DNA of 64,000 nucleotides. Source: Chloroflexia bacterium. GTDB taxonomy: Bacteria; Chloroflexota; Chloroflexia; QHBQ01; JAICKM01. The stretch is taken from contig JBPCPV010000040.1 of assembly GCA_050998805.1 (NCBI GenBank), forward strand, positions 8,248 through 72,247, written 5' to 3'. Below are positions 6,814 through 25,150 of this stretch, piece by piece. The notes under the pieces are model-generated. The model saw nothing but the letters and a program-made list of their open reading frames with translations. It was not told where the DNA came from and ran no database searches. The first letter of the stretch is position 1. Each line of letters opens with the position of its first letter. Both the position numbers and the translations under genes were made by a program.

Positions 6814-8124
6814 TCATGGCCGTGGCTTCAGCGGTATCGGCGTTGGGGCCGCCGCGCATGGAGTGTTCTGGACGTTCGCCTGGTAGACGATCTTGGAGAT
6901 CTGGCCGCGAGTGGCATTGTTGACCGGCTTGAACGTGCCGTCATTGTATCCCGATACCCAGTCGTAGCAGGCTGCGGTTTCGACGAACTGGTAGAACGGG
7001 TCGCTCGGCGGCACATCGCTGAAGCTCGGCGTCGCCGGGTTGATCGTCCCCACGCCGGCCGCGTTCACGATCATCTTCGTGAGTTGGCCGCGCGTGATGT
7101 AGTTGTATGGTCGGAACGTGCCGTCGCTGTAGCCGCTGAACACATTGAAGAGCTTACCGGCCTCGATGTACTGGTAGAACGGGTTACTCGGCGGCACATC
7201 GCTGTAGCTCGGAGTCGCGGGCGGGGGTAGGAGCGGTACGTTCAGACCCAACACCGCGATCTTAGCCATTTGGCTGCGCGTCGTGAAGTTGTACGGCCTG
7301 AATGTGCCGTCGCTGTAGCCGGAGATCGTCCCCTTGCAGAAGAGATACTGCACCGGCAGGTAGAAGTAGTCGCTCTGATGTACGTCGCTGAAGTTGATCG
7401 GGCATGTCGTCGCCTGCGGGCTGGGAACCAGCGTCGGCAGCGGAACCGTCGTCGGAGTAGCCTCAGGGGCTGCCCCCGGATTAGCCAGACCCCACGAGAG
7501 CAACGTACCGATGTCTTCGGCAGTCGTATCGTTTAATTCGAGGGTCCAGATACCGGCGATCGGTGTGCCGTCGAACGCTGCCAGTGAGCCTAGCGGCTTG
7601 TAGGTGCCGCCGCCCGGCGGGCAGACATCGCCTATCTGGGCTACCGCCCCATCCGATAGGTTGAAGTTGGTGTTGCCGGCGTTCTCCTCGATCCCCCCGC
7701 AGGCCGCGTTGAACAACTGCACGCGCGTTCCAAGGGGGCTGATCAAGTAAACGTTCAGGTCGCCGGGGAAGGTATCCGAGATCGAGACGTTGATGACCTC
7801 GAGGTTCGAGACCACGCCCACGTCTACGATCGTCAGTGTAGATGTAACGGTGCCTGTATCCGGCACCGTCTTAGGCACATCTGTGCTCATGTAGTTGGTC
7901 AGCGGAGCAGCCGCGCGAGGCTGTGCTGCTATGCTGTAGGAATGCGATCCGGCCCTCGTGCTTGCGAAGGCACCGCTTGATGCGAACCCTATCACTGCCA
8001 GCAGGGCCAGCACGGGCAGCAAGATCCACCAGCGGTTCTTTTGCACTAACATATCCAGTCTTCCTCTCTGATATATGGCGACCCTTTCTCTGTATCGTCG
8101 CTTGAACTCTCTATTGTCGAGCAT
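6814..8124 (-). CDS. Secreted protein with proprotein-convertase P-domain and C-terminal S-layer homology (SLH) repeats
   Basis: DLNVYLISPLGTRVQL and GIWTLELNDT (P-domain); three GYSDGTFRP..TRxQ SLH repeats. Start 8124 or 8052. Confidence 0.85.
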   Translation of the reverse strand: MLDNREFKRRYRERVAIYQRGRLDMLVQKNRWWILLPVLALLAVIGFASSGAFASTRAGSHSYSIAAQPRAAAPLTNYMSTDVPKTVPDTGTVTSTLTIVDVGVVSNLEVINVSISDTFPGDLNVYLISPLGTRVQLFNAACGGIEENAGNTNFNLSDGAVAQIGDVCPPGGGTYKPLGSLAAFDGTPIAGIWTLELNDTTAEDIGTLLSWGLANPGAAPEATPTTVPLPTLVPSPQATTCPINFSDVHQSDYFYLPVQYLFCKGTISGYSDGTFRPYNFTTRSQMAKIAVLGLNVPLLPPPATPSYSDVPPSNPFYQYIEAGKLFNVFSGYSDGTFRPYNYITRGQLTKMIVNAAGVGTINPATPSFSDVPPSDPFYQFVETAACYDWVSGYNDGTFKPVNNATRGQISKIVYQANVQNTPCAAAPTPIPLKPRP

Positions 8125-8292
8125 ACCCTCCTTTCCTGAATTAATGCGTACAACTATAGGATGCCCGTACTGTCGGGGGGCATCCGCGACTCCACTATCC
8201 AAAGGGTTTACCCATTGACGCCCCATTCGGATTTCGATTTTCCACCCATCTTACATCCGCATAAGTTGAGTCCCGCTATGAAGGCAAACGAC

Positions 8293-9285
8293 TTACCCCA
8301 ATATCTCGCCCAGCACCCGCAGGTAGTTCCCTCCACGCAGCGCCGCGATGGTCTCGGCGGAATATCCCCGCTCGGCGATGGCGGTATAGAGCCGGGGCAG
8401 GTTCCCCACCTGCTCGAGGCCCGGCGGCAGGCCCTCGCCGATGCCGCCGTAGTCTGTGCCGAGGGCCACATGCTCAGGCCCCGCCACCTCCAGCAGGTGG
8501 TCGTAGTGCGCGACTAGCGTATCGAGCGTGACGGGGGTGCCATGCGGGGCCAGGAAGTCGTTCGCGTAGAACACGCCGATCAGCCCGCCGCTCGCGGCCA
8601 CAGCCCCGATCTGGTCGTCTTCGAGGTTGCGCGGGTTCGGGCAGAGCGCCGCGCACGCTGTGTGGGTCACGATCACCGGCGAGGTGCTAGTCTCCAAGAC
8701 GTTCCAGAGGCCGCGCCTGTTGAGGTGCGCGCCGTCTATCACCATCCGCAGGCTGTTCAGCTCACGCACCAGCGCGAAACCCTCCGGCGTCAGCGCCTCG
8801 CCCGGGTCGCCGAACACGCCGGTCGCGTATGCGTTCGAGCGATTCCAGGTGAGACCGAGCGAGCGCAGCCCCGCCTCGTGCAGCGCGCCCAGGTGTTCCG
8901 GCCCCGCGATGCCCCGCGCGCCTTCGCAGTGGAGCAGCACGCCGAAGGCAGCCTCGCCTCCGGCTGCGGCCGTCGAGCGAAGGTCGGAGGCGTCCAAGAT
9001 CAGGCGATATTCGGGGTTGCCGCCGACCCAGGCCAGATAGCGCGCCATCAACTCGTCCACCTCGTCGGCACAGGCCGCCGGCTCATGTTCATCGAGCATC
9101 TCGCCGACGCCGAAGATCGCCCAGAACGAGGCGTCCACCTCACCGGCCCGCAGGTTCGGCAGGTCGAGTTGCGCCCCCTCCCAGCCCGCGTCGAATGCCG
9201 CCGTCCCGCCATGCGCGGCGGCATAGTAGATCGCGTCTTGGTGGCCGTCCATCGTGAAGGGGTGGGGCATATAGGTTTCTGTCAT
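8293..9285 (-). CDS. Membrane dipeptidase (peptidase M19 family)
   Basis: DGHQD, LHCEG, LTWNRSN, IDGAH, HVALGTDYGG amidohydrolase/M19 motifs. Confidence 0.9.
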   Translation of the reverse strand: MTETYMPHPFTMDGHQDAIYYAAAHGGTAAFDAGWEGAQLDLPNLRAGEVDASFWAIFGVGEMLDEHEPAACADEVDELMARYLAWVGGNPEYRLILDASDLRSTAAAGGEAAFGVLLHCEGARGIAGPEHLGALHEAGLRSLGLTWNRSNAYATGVFGDPGEALTPEGFALVRELNSLRMVIDGAHLNRRGLWNVLETSTSPVIVTHTACAALCPNPRNLEDDQIGAVAASGGLIGVFYANDFLAPHGTPVTLDTLVAHYDHLLEVAGPEHVALGTDYGGIGEGLPPGLEQVGNLPRLYTAIAERGYSAETIAALRGGNYLRVLGEILG

Positions 9286-9995
9286 GGGCGGGAGAGCTCC
9301 TCTTTCAGGCGCAGAAGCGCCTCGGTAACCGTTGTTGGGTTTCGCATCATCTCGAAATGGGTGCCTGGCACCTGGATCATGGGCCAGCCCGCAGCCCTTG
9401 CCTCTGCCGCCGGAGCGTCATACACCGGGCTGAATTGGATGTAGCCGCAAGGAGCGTCGGGCCAGCCGTCGAATACCGGGATAAGCTCCTCGTAGACGGC
9501 AAGCGGCAGAGGCTGTAGCTCCGCGACGAAGCGCCGCCGCAGCGCCGGGTCGAGGATCTCTTCCGCCAGATCCTCATCGGTCCAGGTGGGCAGCAGGCCG
9601 TTCCGGGCCGACCGGCGGAACTCCGCAGCCGCAACCGGGTCATCAAAGAGGTCGAGGCGGCTCTTGCTGTCGCTGGGGAGGCCAGCATCCACGAAGACGT
9701 ATCCGGCGACAGGACGGCGGAGAGCCGCCCGCACCGCGGGGAGCAGCACGCCCGCACCGCTGTGGCCCACCAGCGCCGGCGGTTGGTCGGGGGCTGCGGC
9801 CTCCACCGCCTCGACAACAGCCGCCACATGCTGCCGCCAATATGCCAGTCCGCCCGCTTCGGTTGTCCGCAGGGCGGGCACTATAGCGGTCGCGCCTCGC
9901 CTCCGCAGTTCTTCGGCAGTCGGCTGCCAGGTCAGAGGCCCTACAAAAGGGCTGTGGATCAGGATAAAGGCTGCAATCGGGGGCGTCGTGGTCGT
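9282..9995 (-). CDS. Alpha/beta hydrolase; conserved N-terminus lies upstream of the first canonical start (GTG 9881)
   Basis: GHSGAG nucleophile elbow, YVFVDAGLP, GTHF. The in-frame upstream sequence reads FILIHSPFVGPLTWQPTAEELRRRG with no ATG/GTG/TTG before it. Confidence 0.7.
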   Translation of the reverse strand, partial: TTTTPPIAAFILIHSPFVGPLTWQPTAEELRRRGATAIVPALRTTEAGGLAYWRQHVAAVVEAVEAAAPDQPPALVGHSGAGVLLPAVRAALRRPVAGYVFVDAGLPSDSKSRLDLFDDPVAAAEFRRSARNGLLPTWTDEDLAEEILDPALRRRFVAELQPLPLAVYEELIPVFDGWPDAPCGYIQFSPVYDAPAAEARAAGWPMIQVPGTHFEMMRNPTTVTEALLRLKEELSRP

Positions 9996-10541: not shown

Positions 10542-12464
10542 GTGCGAAAACAGGGATTGTGGGGCGATTTGCTGCGCGGCCTCCGTTCACCGTGGCTCTA
10601 CGTCTGCCTCGTTGCGGCGCTTGTGGTGTGGGGCCTCGCCTGGCAGACGCCGTCGAGCTATACGCTCGACGTTGGCGGCCGGCAGGACGACGCCTTCGTA
10701 AGCCATTTCTACGACAAGGAGCCTTCCCCCAACAGCCAGCCCCACCCCGACTTCACCTACCGCTGGACCAGGGCCGACAGCTCCCTCGACTGGCCCGGCC
10801 TCGGCCTCGGCAACCTCCCCGTCAGCGTCACCCTGCGCCTCGCCCCCGCTCCCGGAATTGCCTCGCCGGTTGTGACGGCGACAGTGCGCGGTCAAGCCTT
10901 CCCCATCGCCCTCGCGCCCGGCCTGCATGATTACAGCTTCCAGGTCGCCACGTCGGGCTTCTTCGAGACCGACTTCGAGATCCGCCTCCATACCCGCACC
11001 GTCAGCCCCCCCGGCGACGGGCGCGACCTCGGCGTGCTTGTGGACACCGCCACGCTTGCCCCCGCCGGCCCCGCCCCACCCCAGCCGACTGTGGTCCTGC
11101 CGGTGGCCGAGCTTCTGCGCTGGGCCGTGTCCCTCACCCTGCTCTGGCAGCTCGCCCACTGGCTGTCCGGCAGCGCCCGCGTTGCGACGATCCTCTCCGC
11201 GCTCGCCGTCCTCGTCGTCGCGTGGGGCATCCTGGCCGAACGCCCCAATCTCGGCCTCCTCGCTCCCGAAGTCCCCTGGCTCCTCCTCTCAGCCTACCCG
11301 GTCGCCCTCATCGGCTGCGTGGCCGCGACCTACCTCTCCCCCTATAGGGAAAGAAGCCGGGAGGTTAGGTGGACCGCAGCCGCCTTCGCTGCCGCCTACC
11401 TGCTGCGCGTCGGCGGCATGGTCTACCCTCAGTTCCGCACCAGCGACATCGGCCTCCACATCCACAACATTGAAAAGGTGCTGCGCGGAGTCCTCCTCTG
11501 GCAGGGGACTTTGCCGAACGGCGCGCCCTCGCCGTATCCGCCGCTGCCCTACATCGTGCTCGCGCCGTTCTCCGCGCTTCTGCCCGATCTGTCGCTGCTG
11601 CTGCGCGTAGGCGTCGGCCTGCTCGACGCTTCGTGTGTCCTGCCGCTCTTCTACCTCGGCTCCCGGCTGGCGGGTACACGCGCTGGGACGTGGGCGGCGT
11701 GGGTCTATGCGCTCCTGGTCGCGCCCTTCGCGCTTTTCTCGACGGGCGTTTTCTCCAACCTCTTCGGGCAGGCCGTCTTCACTTGGACGCTCGCCGCCTG
11801 GGGCGCGGCGCTGCTCGCACCTCGTGTCTCGCCGCGTCTCTGGGCCGCTCTGACGACCGGCTTTTTCTTGACATTCCTGAGTCACTATGGTATGCTGATT
11901 GCCGCCGTAGCTGTGGCCGGGCTGTTTGTGCTGTTCGCGCTCGTTGCTGGCCCGGCAGATATACGGAAGCGAGCATTAGGAGTGGCAGGGGCGTTGGCGG
12001 TGGCCGGGATCGCCGCGTTTTTGGTCTACTACATCACCGTCGTGGATCTGCTGTTCGCGCCGACCGGAGGCGTAAGCAGCAGCGGCGGGAGGGGCAGCTT
12101 CGATCTGCTCGGCCTGCCCGACCTGCTCCGTAGGCGGCTCGACCCCGACCTCGGCGCGCTTGCGCTACTATTGGCGCTGGCCGGCTGGCTCACCGCCGGA
12201 CGGCACGCTCGCGGTGTGATTCTGTTAACTGCCGCCGCAGCCGTAGCCGCGTTCGGCTTCGCGGGCGTCAGTATGGTTGTCGGCGACAACATCCGGTATG
12301 CGTTACTGCTCGCGCCGTTCGTGGCCCTCGGTGCCGGTCAGCTCCTGGCCCGCATCGCTGGCCGTGGTCGCCCTGGAACCGGCTGGGCAGTAGTCATACT
12401 GGCAATACTCTTCTGGCAGCTGTTGGGCGCGTGGCTGCCGCTCATCTTTACTCGCTATCACTAG
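10542..12464 (+). CDS. Multi-pass membrane protein, GT-C/PMT-like glycosyltransferase fold
   Basis: About 12 TM segments, PYPPLPY loop and an extracytoplasmic beta domain (YRWT...RDLGVLVD). Confidence 0.65.
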   Translation: MRKQGLWGDLLRGLRSPWLYVCLVAALVVWGLAWQTPSSYTLDVGGRQDDAFVSHFYDKEPSPNSQPHPDFTYRWTRADSSLDWPGLGLGNLPVSVTLRLAPAPGIASPVVTATVRGQAFPIALAPGLHDYSFQVATSGFFETDFEIRLHTRTVSPPGDGRDLGVLVDTATLAPAGPAPPQPTVVLPVAELLRWAVSLTLLWQLAHWLSGSARVATILSALAVLVVAWGILAERPNLGLLAPEVPWLLLSAYPVALIGCVAATYLSPYRERSREVRWTAAAFAAAYLLRVGGMVYPQFRTSDIGLHIHNIEKVLRGVLLWQGTLPNGAPSPYPPLPYIVLAPFSALLPDLSLLLRVGVGLLDASCVLPLFYLGSRLAGTRAGTWAAWVYALLVAPFALFSTGVFSNLFGQAVFTWTLAAWGAALLAPRVSPRLWAALTTGFFLTFLSHYGMLIAAVAVAGLFVLFALVAGPADIRKRALGVAGALAVAGIAAFLVYYITVVDLLFAPTGGVSSSGGRGSFDLLGLPDLLRRRLDPDLGALALLLALAGWLTAGRHARGVILLTAAAAVAAFGFAGVSMVVGDNIRYALLLAPFVALGAGQLLARIAGRGRPGTGWAVVILAILFWQLLGAWLPLIFTRYH

Positions 12465-19525: not shown

Positions 19526-20002
19526 ATGGCTAATTTGGGTCCGGGGACGGCGAACGATGGTCCCCTCGCGCGACGGCGCGCGGTCGCGGAGGGGTGCCTC
19601 GTGCCGGGCGCGGACGCGGGGCGGGTGGCGCAGGGCCGTGCCGCCCTCCTCGATGAGGATGCCTACTTCGACCTGGCCGAAACGTTTCGTGTTCTGGGCG
19701 ACTCGACGCGCGCCAAAATCGTTTACAGTCTGCTGCGCCAGGAGCTTTGCACCTGCGACCTCGCGGCCATCGTCGGCAGTTCGGAGTCGTCGGTCTCGCA
19801 GCATTTGCGGGTGCTCCGCCGTCTGCGGCTCGTCAAAAGCCGCCGCGCAGGCAAGTTGGTCTTCTACAGCCTGGACGACGTGCATATCCGGATCTTGCTT
19901 GCGGTCTGCCTGTCCCACGTCCGCGACGATGGACTGCAACATGCCGAAATGGACAAGGTCATCGAGCTGTTCCCGATCCGGGCGGACAAGGAGGTGCGCT
20001 AG
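19526..20002 (+). CDS. ArsR/SmtB family metal-sensing repressor (ZiaR/CadC-like)
   Basis: AAGGAG RBS; wHTH ELCTCDLA...SQHLRVLR; alpha5 site D-x-H...H-x-x-D. Confidence 0.92.
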   Translation: MANLGPGTANDGPLARRRAVAEGCLVPGADAGRVAQGRAALLDEDAYFDLAETFRVLGDSTRAKIVYSLLRQELCTCDLAAIVGSSESSVSQHLRVLRRLRLVKSRRAGKLVFYSLDDVHIRILLAVCLSHVRDDGLQHAEMDKVIELFPIRADKEVR

Positions 20003-20997
20003 TGGCTGATGGACACGATCATGGCATGACAGGGCGCAAGCTCCGCACGGCCTTTGGCCTGACCGCGCTGATCCTGCTGGTCGAACTGGCCGGTGGCCTG
20101 CTGTCGCACTCTTTGGCTCTGCTCTCGGACGCAGGGCATGTGCTGACCGATATTGCGGCGATCGGATTGGCCTGGTACGCGACCGCGCAGGCCGAACGCC
20201 CTGCGGACGCGCGCCGCACCTTTGGCTATCACCGCACCGGTATACTCGCCGCCCTCGCCAACGCCGTCACACTGATCCTGATCGTGATCTTCATAGGCTA
20301 CGAGGCGGTCGGACGCTTCACGCACCCCCAGCCGGTAGAGCCGGGGCTGATGTTTGTTTCGGCCCTGGTCGGCATCGTCGTGAACCTCTACATCGGCTTC
20401 GGGCTGCGCGCCGAGGGCGGTGCCAATCTGAATGTGCGAGCCGCGATGCTGCATGTCTTTGGCGATGTCGTGGCCTCGGTCGGCGTCGTCGTGGCCGGTC
20501 TTGTGATCCTGCTGACCGGCTGGCAGCTAGCCGACCCGTTGATCTCTATCGGGATCGCCGTGCTGATCGCCAAAGGCGCATGGGACATCCTGCGGGAGAC
20601 GACCGACATCCTCATGGAGGCCACACCCCGCGACCTGAACGTGGCCCAACTCGTGCGCGACCTGCTGAAGGTGCCCGGCGTCCACGATGTTCATGACCTG
20701 CATGTCTGGTCTATAGCCGGCGGGCTGCCGGTGCTCTCGGCGCATGTCCAGGTGGGGGATGACCGCCCCCTTAGCGCGTGTGACCCCCTGATGGTGGAAG
20801 TTAACGGTTTGTTGCAGCAGCGTTACCGGATCGCGCACTCGACCTTACAGCTCGAATACGTCTGTTGTGACGCCAACGACCTCTACTGCATCATGCCGGC
20901 AACGATGCGGACGTCTGGCCCCGCTCACGACCACGCCGCCGATGAACGGGACCACAGCCTGCGTGTGACCGAGCCCGGAGGAGGTGATCGTGGCTGA
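20002..20997 (+). CDS. czcD: Cation diffusion facilitator (CzcD/ZitB-like Zn/Co/Cd exporter)
   Basis: GTG overlaps the ArsR stop; SLALLSDAGH, TFGYHR, AAMLHVFGD, HDLHVWS. Confidence 0.9.
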   Translation: MADGHDHGMTGRKLRTAFGLTALILLVELAGGLLSHSLALLSDAGHVLTDIAAIGLAWYATAQAERPADARRTFGYHRTGILAALANAVTLILIVIFIGYEAVGRFTHPQPVEPGLMFVSALVGIVVNLYIGFGLRAEGGANLNVRAAMLHVFGDVVASVGVVVAGLVILLTGWQLADPLISIGIAVLIAKGAWDILRETTDILMEATPRDLNVAQLVRDLLKVPGVHDVHDLHVWSIAGGLPVLSAHVQVGDDRPLSACDPLMVEVNGLLQQRYRIAHSTLQLEYVCCDANDLYCIMPATMRTSGPAHDHAADERDHSLRVTEPGGGDRG

Positions 20998-21667
20998 TCT
21001 CTCGGCTGGAGCAATCGCATCCTCGGGGCGGAGGGCAGCCGTGCAGGCGGGGGTGCGGGTTGAAATCCTGACAGTCCTCTGGATGACGGGGGAAGCGCTA
21101 ATCGCGATCTGGGCTGGACTTGCGGCGCATAGTGTATTACTGACGGCTTTCGGCCTCGACAGCGTGATCGAGTTGGTGACCGGGGGCGTGTTGCTGTGGC
21201 GGTTGACTGTGGAAGCGCGTGGCGGCGGTCTCGAGCGTGTTGAGCGCGCGGAGAATAGGGCGGCTTGGGTGACGGGAACGGCGCTTGTTCTGCTCTGTGT
21301 GTACGTGGTCGTTACCGCAGCCGCCGGTCTCGTTACCCAAACCGCTGCTGAGGGGTCTCCGGTCGGCATCGGGCTGGCGCTTGTGGCGGTGGTCGGCATG
21401 CCGCTGCTGGCACGCCGCAAACGCAACATTGCGGCGACCATCGGCAGCGTGGCCCTGCGCGGGGATGCGGCCTGCTCGCTCACCTGCGCCTACATGGCGG
21501 CCACGTTGCTGCTGGGCTTGGCGCTGAACGCGGCCTTCGGCTGGTGGTGGGCCGATAACCTCGCCGCCTTCGGATTGCTATGGTGGCTAGTGCCCGAGGC
21601 CCGTGAGGCTCTGTCCGGTGCCCGAGCAGGACGAGCCGCATGCGTCTGTGGCGATGATGACTGCTGA
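20990..21667 (+). CDS. Cation transporter, CDF transmembrane-domain-only type, Cys-rich C-terminus
   Basis: SVLLTAFGLDSVIE, ALRGDAACSLTC, ends CVCGDDDC. Confidence 0.8.
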   Translation: MADLSAGAIASSGRRAAVQAGVRVEILTVLWMTGEALIAIWAGLAAHSVLLTAFGLDSVIELVTGGVLLWRLTVEARGGGLERVERAENRAAWVTGTALVLLCVYVVVTAAAGLVTQTAAEGSPVGIGLALVAVVGMPLLARRKRNIAATIGSVALRGDAACSLTCAYMAATLLLGLALNAAFGWWWADNLAAFGLLWWLVPEAREALSGARAGRAACVCGDDDC

Positions 21668-21703
21668 CCTAGCTACCCGCCGCTGGGATATTCTCGCCAG
21701 TAG

Positions 21704-21737
21704 TACTATTGACAATGGTACGGCAAAGGTGTATACT
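21704..21737 (+). promoter_or_regulatory. sigma70 promoter overlapped by a BlaI-type operator
   Basis: TTGACA(21709)-17 nt-TATACT(21732); imperfect 6-5-6 palindrome TACTAT-TGACA-ATGGTA at 21704..21720. Confidence 0.75.
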
Positions 21738-21782
21738 TGTCGGAGAACGCCGAGCGGACATGCCGGCAGAGGGCACTGCACA

Positions 21783-22250
21783 ATGAGCGAGGAAAAAGAA
21801 CTGACCTTGCACCCGGATCGGCAGGGGCTACAGATCGTCCTGGGCGAACTGGAGGCCGCGATCATGGACGTGGTCTGGCGGCAGCCAGACGGTGCCTGGT
21901 GTACCGTCCGTGACGTGTACGAAACCCTTCGCCAGGAACGGAGCATCGCCTACACGACCGTGATGAATACGATGACCCGGTTGGCGAAGAAGGGTGTCCT
22001 CGAAAGCACAACCCGCGATCACGCTTACCTCTACCGACCGCCGCAGAGCCGGGAGGCGTTCATCCAGGGGATCGTCGGCCATGTGCTCGAGCGGATGCTG
22101 GTCCAATTCACCGGCCCCACCGAGGTCGCCCTTGAGGATTATACGGCGCGGCACCCCGGCGGCGGCGAGAAAGTGGCCCGCTTGCTGGACGAGATCAACG
22201 AGCGCCGAGCCGGCGACGCGACGCGCCATGCGGAAAAGGATGCCGGCTGA
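21783..22250 (+). CDS. BlaI/MecI/CopY family transcriptional repressor
   Basis: LGELEAAIMDVVW, AYTTVMNTMTRLAKKG, AYLYRP. Confidence 0.93.
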   Translation: MSEEKELTLHPDRQGLQIVLGELEAAIMDVVWRQPDGAWCTVRDVYETLRQERSIAYTTVMNTMTRLAKKGVLESTTRDHAYLYRPPQSREAFIQGIVGHVLERMLVQFTGPTEVALEDYTARHPGGGEKVARLLDEINERRAGDATRHAEKDAG

Positions 22251-23275
22251 TGCACACTCTGCTGATCCTCTCTGTGGTCGCGCTTGCCGGCACAGGCAGC
22301 CTGGTTTGCCGGCGGCTGCTCCCCCGCGCACGTGGTTGGGACAGCCGGAGGGCGCTCCAGGTGGCGGGGCTGCTGCTACCGGCTGCTCTGCTCGGTCTGC
22401 TGACGGCGGTCGCCGCCGAATTCATCTGCGAGGTTTGCTTTCGCCTCACGCCGCCGACCGACCTGCTGTTGAGTCTCAGTTTCGCCGGTGCGGGTGTTGC
22501 CGGCCTCGTCGGGGCGGTGATCCTCAACTCTCTGAGGCTCATGATGCTCACACGGCACCTCCGGGGGCGCACCTGGAGCGCACCCGCATGGTTGCAGGCC
22601 CAGGTCGCCGAGCAGGCGGACGAGTTGGGGCTGAGGCAGCCGCCACAGGTGCTGGTCGCCGCCGATGCCCGGCCCTGGGCACTGGTGGCTGGCTTCTTTC
22701 CGCAGTACCTTGTCGTGTCGAGTAGGCTGGTCGGACTGCTGGATAACGAGGAACTCGATGCCGTTCTCTGCCACGAGTTGATGCATCTGCGGCGCGGCGA
22801 CCTATGGTGGACCGCGCTGGCCGGTGTGCTGCACGACCTGACCTGGTTCCTGCCGACGACCCGCCGCCTCTACCGTTTGCTGCGCGCAGAGCTGGAACTT
22901 GCCTGTGACGACTACCTAGTGGGCGAGCGGCGGCGGCTTGCCCTTGCGAGCGCCCTCGCGCGCGTCCAGCTAGCGGGGTTGGGGGCGGGGCCGCAGGCGC
23001 GCGGATCTCTGGCGCTGCTGGACTCACCTCTTGACGGCTCGATTGAGGCGCGCCTACGGCGGCTGCTCGATCATTCGGGGCGTGATGTCGCGCCCGGCAC
23101 CCTGACGGCGCTACCGGTCTTCGCGGGTGGGGTGGGGCTGGTGGCGCTGCTACAGGTCGGCGCGAGCCTCTGGGCGATGAACATGCTCGGCTGCAACCTC
23201 GGCCAGGCGGGGACGATGAACATGCTCGGCTGTGACTTGCAACAGTTGAGCGCCATATGCGGGTTAATCCATTAG
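22250..23275 (+). CDS. M56 family (BlaR1/MecR1-like) membrane metallopeptidase sensor
   Basis: Translationally coupled to the repressor (TGATG); HELMH zincin motif; ELACDD; TM segments. Confidence 0.9.
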   Translation: MHTLLILSVVALAGTGSLVCRRLLPRARGWDSRRALQVAGLLLPAALLGLLTAVAAEFICEVCFRLTPPTDLLLSLSFAGAGVAGLVGAVILNSLRLMMLTRHLRGRTWSAPAWLQAQVAEQADELGLRQPPQVLVAADARPWALVAGFFPQYLVVSSRLVGLLDNEELDAVLCHELMHLRRGDLWWTALAGVLHDLTWFLPTTRRLYRLLRAELELACDDYLVGERRRLALASALARVQLAGLGAGPQARGSLALLDSPLDGSIEARLRRLLDHSGRDVAPGTLTALPVFAGGVGLVALLQVGASLWAMNMLGCNLGQAGTMNMLGCDLQQLSAICGLIH

Positions 23276-23287
23276 AGAGGGACCAAC

Positions 23288-24622
23288 GTGATCTGGATAA
23301 TCTATGCCGTCGTCGTGCTCGTGGTGAGCGGCTTCATCGGGATGCACCTCGGGCGGTTCCGGGAGGCGTATACCGAAATGACCGGCATGATGGCCGGCAT
23401 GACGATGGGGATGTTGAACGGGTTCGTCCTCGGCTTCGCGGCGGCGGCGGCCACCGAGCCGAACGGCATGTTCTGGGGCAACCTCTTCGGCATCCTGCTC
23501 GGCCTCTCGCTCGGCTGGTACTTCGGGCGCGCCGGCGGGCTGATGGGCGTCATGGACGGTGCGATGGGCGGCGTCATGGGCGGCTCGATGGGGGCGATGC
23601 TCTCCGTCATGGTCCGCTACATTGATTGGCAACTCACCGCGACCGCCTTGCTGCTGGGAGCGCTCTATATCGCAGGGATGATCGGGCTAGTTGTGCTGAT
23701 CGAGCGAAGCGCGCCCGAACACGCGGCTCTCCACCGGCTCGCCCCGATGTTCACGCGGGCCATCGCGGCCGAAGTGGGGGAAGTCCAGGCAGCCGCGACT
23801 GAGCAGGAACCCGCCCCCCGGCGTATGCTCGACTACTACGCCTTCCTCGGCGTCTTCCCACGGGCGAGCGAAGACGAGATCATAGAAGCCTACTTGCTCA
23901 AGGTGGAGGACGCGGACCCCGCGACGGTCGCACGGGCCGAGCGCGCCCTGGCCGTCCTCAGCGACCGAGAGCAGCGCGCCGACTACGACAAGGCTCTGGC
24001 CGCGAACCGAGCGGCCCTCTCCGGCGTAGACAGACGCCGCGAGAAAGAACCGCCCGCAGGCGGGGGCACCGGGCGCGCAAGTAGCGAAATAACCGTGCGA
24101 CCTACGCGCTCGGCGGCAGGCGCTCCCGGACGCCGAACCGCTGTCCAGGCCCGCCGTCAACAGCCTGCGCCGCGCAGCAACGCCCTCTGGCTCTTGGCGG
24201 TCATCCCGGTACTGGCGGTCATCATCGGCGCGTTCATCTTGAGCAACAACTCGTCGGAATCCGGCTTTACACCGTCAGCCGATGGCGCGCCCGACGCGGC
24301 GCTGCTCGCCCAGGCGGTGACTGCGCCGCTCGGCGTGGACGGAGTGCAGACGCTCGATCTGGTGGTGGACGGCAGCACGATCAGCTACAAGCCGAGCGTG
24401 ATCAAGGTCAAGCAAGGGGTGCCGGTTCGCTTCAATCTGAGCACAGAAGGCCCGGACCCTGGCTGAGGGCGTTTCGTCGGACTCCGAGGTCTCGGAGTAC
24501 ACGGTATCGCCACCCCCGGCCAGGTCACGGCCTTCGACTTCACGCCGAACCAGGCAGGCACGTTCGAGATCAACTGCGGCATGGGCATGATGCGCCCCGG
24601 CACGCTGATCGTCACGCAATAG
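23288..24622 (+). CDS. Putative selenoprotein (444 aa, Sec393): Met-rich membrane domain + degenerate J-domain + TM helix + CupA-like cupredoxin domain
   Basis: In-frame TGA 24464 in GPDPG-U, followed by GRFVGLRGLGVHGIATPGQVTAFDFTPNQAGTFEINCGMGMMRPGTLIVTQ and TAG at 24620-24622. SECIS-like hairpin follows the TGA; the next gene starts 3 nt after the TAG. Confidence 0.85.
24467..24511 (+). promoter_or_regulatory. Candidate bacterial SECIS element
   Basis: Upper stem ACTCCGA/TCGGAGT (24481-24498) with GGTC loop whose first G is 21 nt after the UGA; lower pairing GGCG/CGCC and TCGT/ACGG. Confidence 0.75.
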
Positions 24623-24625
24623 GCC

Positions 24626-25150
24626 ATGAAGCGCACCCTGCTTCTGCTGCTCGCCTGCTTGCCACTCGTCGCCTGCGATACGGACACCGGATCTACGGCG
24701 TCGTCGGGGCAGCAGGCACCCGGCGGGCGGGTCGCTCAGGGCGCGCCCGCGCCGGATTTCAGCGCGCCGGACCTTGACGGGCAGGCGGTTGACCTGCACA
24801 GCCTGCGCGGCAAGCCGGTATGGATCAACTTCTGGGCCACATGGTGCGTGCCCTGCAAGGCCGAAATGCCGCTCATGGAGCAGAAGTACCAGCAGTACCG
24901 CGACAGCGGTCTGGTGATCCTCGGCGTCAACGTGCAGGAGAGCAAGCAGACTATACGCTCCTGGGTTGCCGGCAAGTTCGATTGGCGCTTCCTGCCCGAC
25001 GCGGAAGGCAAGCTGGCGAACCTATACCAGGTCGAGGGCGTGCCGACGCACATCTTCATAGACCGCGCGGGCGTGATCCGCAGCGTCCATGTTGACCAAC
25101 TCTCCGCGCCCGGCATGGACGCCGCGCTAGCGCCGATCCTCGCGCCCTAG
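24626..25150 (+). CDS. TlpA/ResA-like thiol-disulfide oxidoreductase lipoprotein
   Basis: Lipobox LVAC; INFWATWCVPCKAEMP; GVPTHIFID. Confidence 0.92.
   Translation: MKRTLLLLLACLPLVACDTDTGSTASSGQQAPGGRVAQGAPAPDFSAPDLDGQAVDLHSLRGKPVWINFWATWCVPCKAEMPLMEQKYQQYRDSGLVILGVNVQESKQTIRSWVAGKFDWRFLPDAEGKLANLYQVEGVPTHIFIDRAGVIRSVHVDQLSAPGMDAALAPILAP

Follow-up and report, generated by a model that had tools for sequence, protein, structure and literature searches.

A UGA codon probably decoded as selenocysteine in the CupA-like domain of a membrane protein from soil Chloroflexia

Results

The locus

The window analysed here is a stretch of 64,000 nucleotides of a Chloroflexia bacterium (assembly GCA_050998805.1, contig JBPCPV010000040.1, positions 8,248 to 72,247), and all coordinates refer to it. 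A four-gene cluster on the plus strand contains a gene with an in-frame TGA. The features are as follows.

21783..22250 (+), BlaI/CopY-family repressor, the first gene of the cluster, with its start taken at ATG 21783
22250..23275 (+), BlaR1-like M56 membrane metalloprotease (HELMH) without a penicillin-binding domain, whose C-terminal tail carries two MNMLGC motifs
23288..24622 (+), complete candidate selenoprotein gene, 444 codons plus the TAG stop
23288..23767 (+), N-terminal five-helix Met/Gly-rich membrane domain (residues 1-160)
23831..23989 (+), degenerate J-like domain (residues 182-234) without an HPD motif, followed by an Arg-rich linker that is predicted to be cytoplasmic
24188..24259 (+), sixth transmembrane helix (about residues 301-324), predicted to anchor the cupredoxin domain on the outer face of the membrane
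24290..24619 (+), CupA-like cupredoxin domain (residues 335-444), which spans the UGA
24464..24466 (+), in-frame UGA, codon 393
24481..24498 (+), SECIS-like hairpin, a 7-bp stem (24481-24487 paired with 24492-24498) with a GGUC loop (24488-24491)
24575..24589 (+), C430-G-M432-G-M434
24626..25150 (+), ResA/TlpA-like thiol-disulfide oxidoreductase, a lipoprotein (lipobox LVAC) with a WCVPC motif

The ORF starts at GTG 23288 and stops at TGA 24464-24466. The same frame continues for 51 sense codons to TAG 24620-24622, and the next gene starts at ATG 24626, 3 nt after the TAG. The read-through product is 444 aa, with U393, C430, M432 and M434, and ends ...FEINCGMGMMRPGTLIVTQ. Gene callers truncate the gene at 24466. 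The database copy (P0006) is 392 aa, and four further database proteins (P0026-P0029) also end at the TGA. The N-terminus aligns with that of the homologues. The hairpin has the stem strands ACTCCGA and TCGGAGT and the loop GGTC. Its first loop G is nt 25 counted from the U of the UGA, which leaves 21 nt between the UGA and that G. Everything that a sequence-only reading had described here, i.e., the mid-domain stop, the open frame beyond it and the hairpin, is present in the sequence.

The TGA is genuine and conserved

A sequencing error had been named beforehand as an alternative, so we compared the region with independent read-derived contigs. Logan contigs of runs from three different studies (a soil, a run labelled 'organism A' and a sediment) cover 24300-24700 with zero differences. 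Thus, the TGA is not an assembly error. Nor is TGA reassigned, since it is an ordinary stop for 19 of the other 49 genes called in the window.

The same reading had predicted that homologues would show Cys or TGA at position 393, and this is what we find. Nineteen further loci from Chloroflexia or Chloroflexota carry TGA at the same codon. The 20 TGA loci have 18 distinct domain sequences and include 10 species-representative MAGs labelled Chloroflexia or Chloroflexota. In each, the frame continues through the rest of the domain. In 36 other loci and 25 database proteins the position is Cys. It is one of only ten invariant columns (Cys/Sec) in an alignment of 46 sequences, in which the columns of C430, M432 and M434 are also invariant.

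The sequence downstream of the UGA is under coding constraint. Beyond the hairpin, differences among the TGA forms fall 824:522:2056 on codon positions 1:2:3. This bears on the possibility that the TGA is a true stop, either in a nonsense pseudogene or in a naturally truncated 392-residue protein with the downstream frame as a remnant. Such a reading agrees with the gene calls and with the normal use of TGA as a stop elsewhere in the window. However, the same TGA with an intact downstream frame recurs in 20 loci that differ mainly at third codon positions, truncation would cut the cupredoxin fold in half and remove three of the four invariant ligands, and the next gene starts directly after the extended frame. 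We therefore consider a true stop very unlikely. There is no evidence for translation, and the only transcript-level hint is one 253-nt contig, 97.6% identical, in a run labelled RNA-Seq. Several other TGA-terminated genes in the window have long open extensions; these were not pursued, because open off-frames are common at 65% GC and the longest extension overlaps the next gene.

The hairpin behaves like a bacterial SECIS element

The hairpin had been proposed as a SECIS, and its behaviour across homologues is as predicted. It recurs at the identical offset in all 20 TGA-bearing loci. All TGA forms pair at least 6 of 7 stem positions at nt 18-35, with a GGUC loop, the exception being locus L005, which has a 6-bp stem and the loop CGGGCU. 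Among 14 of these loci, 99% of stem cells are paired and three pairs show compensatory changes (A-U for G-C at the base; GC to AU in four sequences). None of 500 shuffles reaches the observed values. Third-position entropy falls to 0.37 bits in five of the six stem codons (codons 5-8 and 10; codon 9 has 0.99) and is 1.1-1.95 in the flanking codons. Synonymous sites are frozen only inside the hairpin, which is selected as RNA. Cys forms encode the same LRGLG peptide with CUG CGC GGG CUG GGC and have no hairpin. The association between TGA and the hairpin may rest on as few as one evolutionary origin of the Sec form. A phylogenetic test had only one well-supported independent contrast, too few for significance, so the association is not statistically independent evidence.

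The small apical loop containing G, just 3' of the UGA, is the form described for bacterial SECIS elements (PMC1088965). The E. coli fdhF SECIS also lies inside the coding sequence directly 3' of its UGA and has the same GGUC tetraloop, at nt 22-25 against nt 25-28 here, a shift of exactly one codon. The stem here is a perfect 7 bp without the bulged U of fdhF, and is more stable (-10.3 against -4.2 kcal/mol for the minihelix). No Rfam SECIS model matches at either the gathering or the permissive threshold, which gave only noise, though those models cover only a few families. Binding by SelB was not examined.

Genes for the selenocysteine machinery were sought in the window and in related loci only, and selA, selB, selC and selD were not searched for in the whole genome. 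A tblastn search with E. coli SelA, SelB and SelD against the window and 55 loci (0.5 Mb) returned only two weak GTPase-domain hits, in candidate-phyla-radiation loci. ARAGORN found no tRNA-Sec in the window or in loci L001-L021.

The domain is CupA-like in fold and site

Pfam Cupredoxin_1 (PF13473) matches residues 366-442, across the TGA, at 39.7 bits against a cutoff of 27. In the PDB, the best sequence hit is CupA, the membrane-anchored Cu(I) chaperone of Streptococcus pneumoniae (phmmer E 1e-8), followed by the N-terminal cupredoxin metal-binding domain of S. pneumoniae CopA. The AF2 model of the domain has a pLDDT of 95.6. Foldseek ranks CupA first (PDB 4f2e; TM 0.86, rmsd 1.7 A, 33% identity) and the CopA domain second (PDB 4f2f; TM 0.85). 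The sequence-only reading had placed GPDPG-U at the CupA DPSPC cysteine. HMMER gives this alignment and pairs NCGMGMM with ACGMNMM of CupA, so that U393, C430, M432 and M434 align with C74, C111, M113 and M115. In CupA (also PDB 2mry), Cys74/Cys111 form site 1 and Cys74/Met113/Met115 form site 2 (PMC5646241). The CopA domain has the same C...CxMxM motif, with Cys at the position, but is cytoplasmic and part of a P1B-ATPase, whereas here the ATPase is a separate gene, seen in relatives only.

Unlike CupA, which faces the cytoplasm, the domain is predicted to face outward. It follows the hydropathy segment 293-324. The preceding cytoplasmic stretch (residues 182-300) holds 20 K/R, and the 25 residues after the helix hold none. 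These hydropathy and positive-inside assignments, made without a topology predictor or experiment, and an extracytoplasmic lipoprotein as partner do not settle whether the domain is a cytoplasm-facing chaperone that hands Cu(I) to CopA. We therefore regard it as a homologous domain and do not class the protein as a CupA orthologue.

The rest of the protein also differs from CupA. In the N-terminal five-helix domain, H20 and 11 Met are invariant. Its AF2 model has a mean pLDDT of 88, no Pfam family was found, and Foldseek found nothing significant in the PDB (best E-value 1.6). The J-like domain scores 23.5 bits with Pfam DnaJ, below the cutoff of 27.8, and NCBIfam DnaJ hits lie far below their cutoffs. 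The sequence reads ...KVEDADPATV... where HPD would lie. Thus, it is J-like only and is not a J-domain by these criteria.

Genomic context

The product of 24626-25150 matches Pfam AhpC-TSA/Redoxin and NCBIfam ResA (E 3e-33). The redoxin gene lies downstream of both Sec and Cys forms in about 20 loci. The BlaI and M56 genes are conserved upstream of Sec forms. They match Pfam Penicillinase_R, with a weak NCBIfam CopY_TcrY hit, and Pfam Peptidase_M56/M48, respectively. CupA also lies in a locus with a BlaI/CopY-family repressor, but the repressor here lacks the Cys motif of CopY and is paired with an M56 protease.

Copper genes are found beside Sec forms. Locus L016 reads CsoR, CopA (two HMA domains), CopZ, then a gene for the Met-rich membrane domain, the selenoprotein gene and the redoxin. 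A second CopZ lies beside L017. Heavy-metal-type P-type ATPases lie beside L001, L007 and L013, and two CDF genes lie upstream in the window. This context is the only support for Cu(I) binding, which was not assayed.

Discussion

We suggest, with high confidence, that gene 23288-24622 encodes one 444-residue membrane selenoprotein, in which UGA 24464-24466 is decoded as Sec393 through a bacterial-type SECIS, the hairpin that starts 15 nt after the codon, presumably bound by SelB carrying Sec-tRNA(Sec). The interpretation offered in the sequence-only reading, selenocysteine at the copper-ligand position of a CupA-like cupredoxin, is supported. Our analysis establishes the conserved UGA with Cys at the same position in homologues, the coding constraint beyond it, a structured and co-varying hairpin found only in UGA forms, the CupA-type fold and ligand set, and synteny with the redoxin and with copper-resistance genes. 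Selenium incorporation itself, for which no labelling or mass spectrometry data were examined, is inferred, as are copper as the metal, the outward orientation and the role of the redoxin, which rest on homology, hydropathy and synteny only.

Read-through without selenocysteine is an alternative, with a near-cognate tRNA inserting Trp, Cys or Arg, or some other recoding, and the hairpin as a general stimulator. The lack of an Rfam match and the restricted search for sel genes leave room for it. However, the position is otherwise invariant Cys, which is the classic Sec/Cys pair pattern, the loop is that of bacterial SECIS elements and is the very GGUC of fdhF, and a metal-ligand position would not tolerate Trp or Arg. 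We regard this alternative as improbable.

In our model, Sec393 occupies the position of CupA Cys74, the residue shared by the bis-thiolate high-affinity site and the Met-rich low-affinity site of the binuclear Cu(I) cluster, and C430, M432 and M434 supply the other ligands. The domain is most likely a Cu(I)-binding, and possibly Cu(II)-reducing, module in which a selenolate replaces the bridging thiolate. That Sec is a direct Cu(I) ligand, which had been proposed with a redox centre as the other option, is an inference from homology. The domain would be tethered through the sixth helix to the cytoplasmic J-like domain and the five-helix domain. The ResA/TlpA-like lipoprotein is the likely reductant that keeps or restores the Sec393/Cys430 pair in the reduced, metal-binding state. 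The system of ScoI and TlpA in Bradyrhizobium offers an analogy. There, a membrane-tethered, outward-facing copper site with Cys ligands needs a dedicated thiol-disulfide reductase, although ScoI has a thioredoxin fold. Engineered Cys112Sec azurin is a chemical precedent for a selenolate that ligates copper in a cupredoxin fold. Neither is a natural selenoprotein.

It is also possible, though less likely, that Sec is incorporated but is not mainly a static Cu(I) ligand. The Sec393/Cys430 pair could be a selenenylsulfide redox centre, i.e., a cupric reductase or a thiol-selenol oxidoreductase cycled by the ResA-like partner. The site could handle another thiophilic metal such as Ag(I) or Hg(II), or the protein could be a sensor or co-regulator of the BlaI/M56 pair rather than a chaperone. 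CupA itself reduces Cu(II) through C74 and C111 in vitro and its reductant is unknown (PMC5646241; PMC7558416), a dedicated extracytoplasmic oxidoreductase is the conserved neighbour, Sec forms sit behind BlaI/M56 regulators, and most known selenoproteins are redox enzymes (PMC13188914). Against this, the full CupA ligand set, including both Met residues of the low-affinity site, is invariant, which argues for metal binding, and several Sec-form loci carry CsoR, CopA and CopZ. Redox and ligand roles do not exclude each other.

Sec in metal-handling proteins is already known from prediction. The 2026 selenoproteome review (PMC13188914) lists a heavy-metal P-type ATPase with UxxC, CopZ-family 2Fe-2S proteins, the SO_0444 Cu/Zn efflux transporter and a MerT-like protein. 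In each, Sec replaces a metal-binding Cys in a copper or heavy-metal homeostasis protein, and all were found by the same Sec/Cys-pair plus SECIS logic. Those proteins have other folds (HMA, BFD-like, permease). The table and text of the review contain no entry for cupredoxin, PF13473 or CupA. This agrees with three earlier papers, with NCBIfam, in which no selenoprotein model hits this protein, and with the earlier suggestion that cupredoxin-fold copper chaperones are not among the listed families. A literature search on selenocysteine, copper and Chloroflexota found nothing. The family adds a cupredoxin fold to the prokaryotic selenoproteins, and a Sec family to Chloroflexia, a group with few documented selenoproteins. 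Current pipelines cut the gene at the UGA in every copy found (P0006, P0026-P0029) and so lose the metal site, and the family needs a selenoprotein rule.

Natural Sec-metal bonds are established for Mo/W and Ni enzymes, and a selenolate in a Cu(I) trafficking site would be a new natural Se-metal pairing. Natural Sec/Cys pairs are available for direct comparison of affinity, redox behaviour and resistance to oxidation. The ResA-like neighbour is a candidate for the unknown reductant that CupA-type sites need (PMC5646241), and the deeply conserved Met-rich five-helix domain is an uncharacterised membrane module that may conduct Cu(I). A further reading is more tentative, and we consider it somewhat less likely than not. 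This would be the first natural copper-selenium protein site, with a selenolate bridging the two Cu(I) ions of a CupA-type cluster on the outer face of the membrane, cycled through a selenenylsulfide by the dedicated lipoprotein. Copper tolerance of a widespread group of soil Chloroflexia would then depend on selenium supply. The Sec forms would be the inducible, resistance-locus versions, found behind BlaI/M56 or CsoR-CopA-CopZ, and the Cys forms the housekeeping versions, found beside Lon.

We also considered whether loss of the cytoplasmic CCPPPRR motif goes with Sec. This was rejected, since loci L014 and L019 have both, and L013-type loci carry the motif on a separate gene.

The in-frame UGA and the downstream reading frame

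The features of the probable selenoprotein gene are as follows.
23288, GTG start codon of the ORF
24464-24466, in-frame TGA, codon 393 (U393 when TGA is read as U)
24481-24487 and 24492-24498, the two arms of the stem ACUCCGA/UCGGAGU, which encloses a GGUC loop and starts 15 nt after the UGA
24620-24622, TAG stop codon, reached after 51 further codons, giving a product of 444 residues
24626, ATG start codon of the next gene

The sequence-only reading had described a frame that stays open beyond the TGA and a hairpin behind it, and this observation holds exactly as it was made. Logan contigs from runs of three separate studies cover 24300-24700 without a single difference, and therefore the TGA is not an assembly or sequencing error. 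TGA also ends 19 of the other 49 genes that we called in the window, so the codon is not reassigned genome-wide. In addition, a 253-nt contig from a soil run labelled RNA-Seq (X16) covers 24347-24599, which includes the UGA and the hairpin. Of its six differences, five are listed, four at third codon positions and one Thr to Ser, and none lies in the UGA or the stem. Though DNA carry-over cannot be excluded, this suggests that a close relative transcribes the region.

Pfam Cupredoxin_1 matches residues 366-442, straight across the UGA and above its gathering score. A protein search with residues 300-444 returned 25 full-length homologues, all of which have Cys in the motif DPG-C-GR at the aligned position, together with four called proteins, plus the window's own, that end exactly at ...DPG. 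The DNA of those four (loci L001-L004) has TGA there, followed by an open frame that encodes the rest of the domain. Scans of the species-representative genomes and of JGI metagenomes added further loci. In total, 20 loci carry TGA, with 18 distinct domain sequences, and where a record title names an organism it is Chloroflexia or Chloroflexota. Another 36 loci carry TGC or TGT, and these include archaeal, candidate-phyla-radiation and Bacillota relatives. Thus, the expectation stated beforehand, that homologues should show Cys or TGA at position 393, was borne out. Among the TGA forms, the nucleotide differences downstream of the hairpin fall 824:522:2056 on codon positions 1:2:3, a pattern that is the signature of a translated sequence under purifying selection.

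The hairpin as a probable recoding signal

All 20 TGA forms can pair at least 6 of the 7 stem positions at nt 18-35 after the U of UGA. Nineteen of them have a GGUC loop, while locus L005 has a 6-bp stem of different sequence and a CGGGCU loop. On the alignment of 14 forms, 99% of stem cells are paired, and three pairs show changes on both sides: the window's A-U against G-C at the stem base, G-U against C-G in L005, and GC to AU in four sequences. None of 500 column shuffles reaches the observed pairing or covariation, and sliding the 3' arm by 1-3 columns destroys the pairing.

The stem codes for the peptide L-R/Q-G-L-G, which the Cys forms also have, and this gives a direct control. Cys forms write it as CUG CGC GGG CUG GGC or similar and pair only 1-6 positions, mostly 2-4. 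In TGA forms, the third-codon-position entropy is 0.37 bits in five of the six stem codons (5-8 and 10; codon 9 is 0.99), compared with 1.1-1.95 bits in the flanking codons, and in Cys forms the same six codons give 0.95-1.8 bits. Selection therefore acts on the RNA, and only where there is a UGA. On the domain tree the Sec forms are clustered and a single origin is not excluded, so the co-occurrence of TGA and hairpin is not a set of independent events. The argument rests instead on covariation and synonymous-site constraint within the Sec forms.

The SECIS of E. coli fdhF, read from K-12 DNA, has the same GGUC apical loop. It begins at nt 22, against nt 25 here, which is exactly one codon further. 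This fits the published description of bacterial SECIS elements as stem-loops directly after the UGA with a small apical loop containing G (PMC1088965). No Rfam model matches the hairpin.

Presence of the Sec machinery had been set beforehand as a condition for the reading. No tRNA-Sec and no homologue of SelA or SelD lies in the window or in 0.5 Mb of related loci, and the only SelB hits there were two weak GTPase-domain matches in candidate-phyla-radiation loci. The remainder of the genome was not searched for these genes. This absence says little, since they need not be linked to their target. ARAGORN does call a 104-nt "tRNA-Ala(cgc)" at 12170-12273, inside the ORF 10542-12464, but Rfam does not support it at gathering threshold and it is probably a false call. 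A "tRNA-Leu" at 8937-9019 of locus L016, inside the selenoprotein gene on the opposite strand, looks equally spurious.

Predicted fold and metal ligands of the C-terminal domain

The C-terminal 110 residues give a confident model (pLDDT 95.6). Its best structural matches in the PDB are the S. pneumoniae Cu(I) chaperone CupA (4f2e; TM 0.86, rmsd 1.7 A) and the cupredoxin metal-binding domain of CopA (4f2f). CupA is also the best sequence match, and HMMER aligns GPDPG-U-GR with KDPSP-C-LD and NCGMGMM with ACGMNMM. In CupA, one Cu(I) is held by C74 and C111, and the other by C74, M113 and M115. The two cysteines also reduce Cu(II) in vitro, and their own reductant is unknown (PMC5646241, PMC7558416). 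Counting along the chain shows that U393 is C74, C430 is C111, M432 is M113 and M434 is M115, and these four columns are invariant in 46 diverse sequences. Sec thus stands at the ligand shared by both copper sites.

Domain organization and predicted topology

The protein differs from CupA in having six hydrophobic segments. Five N-terminal helices (23288-23767) form a separate predicted domain (model pLDDT 88), which is the most conserved part of the protein, at 68-81% identity among Chloroflexia. H20, eleven Met and many Gly are invariant, with H20 and the Met residues in the motifs TEMTGMMxGMTxGM and GxMGxMxGxMxGxMxGxMGxM. This domain has no Pfam family and no significant structural match in the PDB, and it also occurs in archaeal homologues (L022:705-1142, L041:4001-4420 and L042:4001-4258). 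It may be a Cu(I)-conducting module. After it come a J-like domain that lacks HPD and scores below the Pfam threshold, an Arg-rich linker and a sixth helix.

By the positive-inside rule, the linker is predicted to be cytoplasmic and the cupredoxin domain to lie outside. Consistent with this, the next gene encodes a lipoprotein of the ResA/TlpA/DsbE class with a WCVPC motif, and that gene follows the cupredoxin gene in about 20 loci, for both Sec and Cys forms. We infer that it reduces the Sec393/Cys430 pair.

In one Sec subgroup (L013, L016-L018, L037-L039) the gene is split and the J-like domain is duplicated. In L013, the two genes lie at 7935-8822 and 8677-9654, and the same layout occurs in L016, L017, L018, L037 and L038. 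Gene A carries the Met-rich TM domain, a J-like domain and an ECCPPPRR tail, while gene B carries a J-like domain, a TM helix and the Sec-cupredoxin domain. The J-like domains may mediate assembly of the two halves. A related motif, D/E-CC-PPP-R/K-R, is conserved in the cytoplasmic linker of most Cys forms (columns of about 405-415 of our alignment A1; L006, L008, L009, L011, L015, L034 and L035). The window's protein and most Sec forms lack it, but L014 and L019 have both the motif and Sec, so there is no strict link between its loss and Sec.

Interpretation and relation to catalogued selenoproteins

We suggest that the UGA at 24464 is very probably a selenocysteine codon with its SECIS, and that the protein is a multidomain membrane protein whose CupA-like copper site, predicted to face outward, uses Sec as the bridging ligand. 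The interpretation given in the sequence-only reading, a selenocysteine at the copper-ligand position of a CupA-like cupredoxin, is therefore supported. Our data establish the conservation, the covariation, the fold and ligands, and the synteny, whereas selenium incorporation, copper binding, the orientation and the partnership with the redoxin are inferences from them.

The most recent catalogue of prokaryotic selenoprotein families has no entry for cupredoxin, plastocyanin, CupA or PF13473 (PMC13188914, 2026). It does list predicted Sec forms of other metal-handling proteins, i.e., a P-type ATPase with UxxC, CopZ-family 2Fe-2S proteins and the SO_0444 transporter. The family is not mentioned in the 2022 review, the GOS paper or the deep-Sep paper either, a full-text search for selenoprotein together with cupredoxin found nothing relevant, and NCBIfam has no model for it. 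Though the recoding mechanism is the standard one, the family and the chemistry it implies are new.

Genomic context

In the window, the gene is third in a tight four-gene cluster of a BlaI/CopY-family repressor, an M56 protease, the selenoprotein and the redoxin. The BlaI/M56 pair precedes the Sec forms L001-L003, L005, L007, L012-L014, L017, L037 and L038. Other Sec forms lie in classical copper loci. L016 reads CsoR, CopA with two HMA domains, CopZ, then the system. A second CopZ lies beside L017, and heavy-metal-type P-type ATPases lie beside L001, L007 and L013. In contrast, the Cys forms examined sit directly behind a Lon protease gene (L006:4791-7850, L008:520-3516 and L010:3339-6251, compared with 21783-23275 in the window). 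Copper is therefore the best-supported metal, and the Sec forms look like the resistance-locus versions. This arrangement suggests inducible and constitutive versions of the same module.

Two overlapping cation-diffusion-facilitator (CDF) metal-efflux genes, at 19747-20997 and 20984-21667, lie directly upstream of the cluster, and the second is short (227 aa) and ends in CVCGDDDC. The BlaR1-like M56 protease has no penicillin-binding sensor domain. Its C-terminus (23170-23275) is a tail with two MNMLGC motifs (LWAMNMLGCNLGQAGTMNMLGCDLQQLSAICG), which could be a thiophilic-metal sensor. Upstream of the BlaI-like gene, within 21700-21740, a TTGACA-17 nt-TATACT promoter-like site lies at 21710-21738 and overlaps an imperfect palindrome, GTACTATTGACAATGGTAC, which is a likely operator of the TACA/TGTA class.
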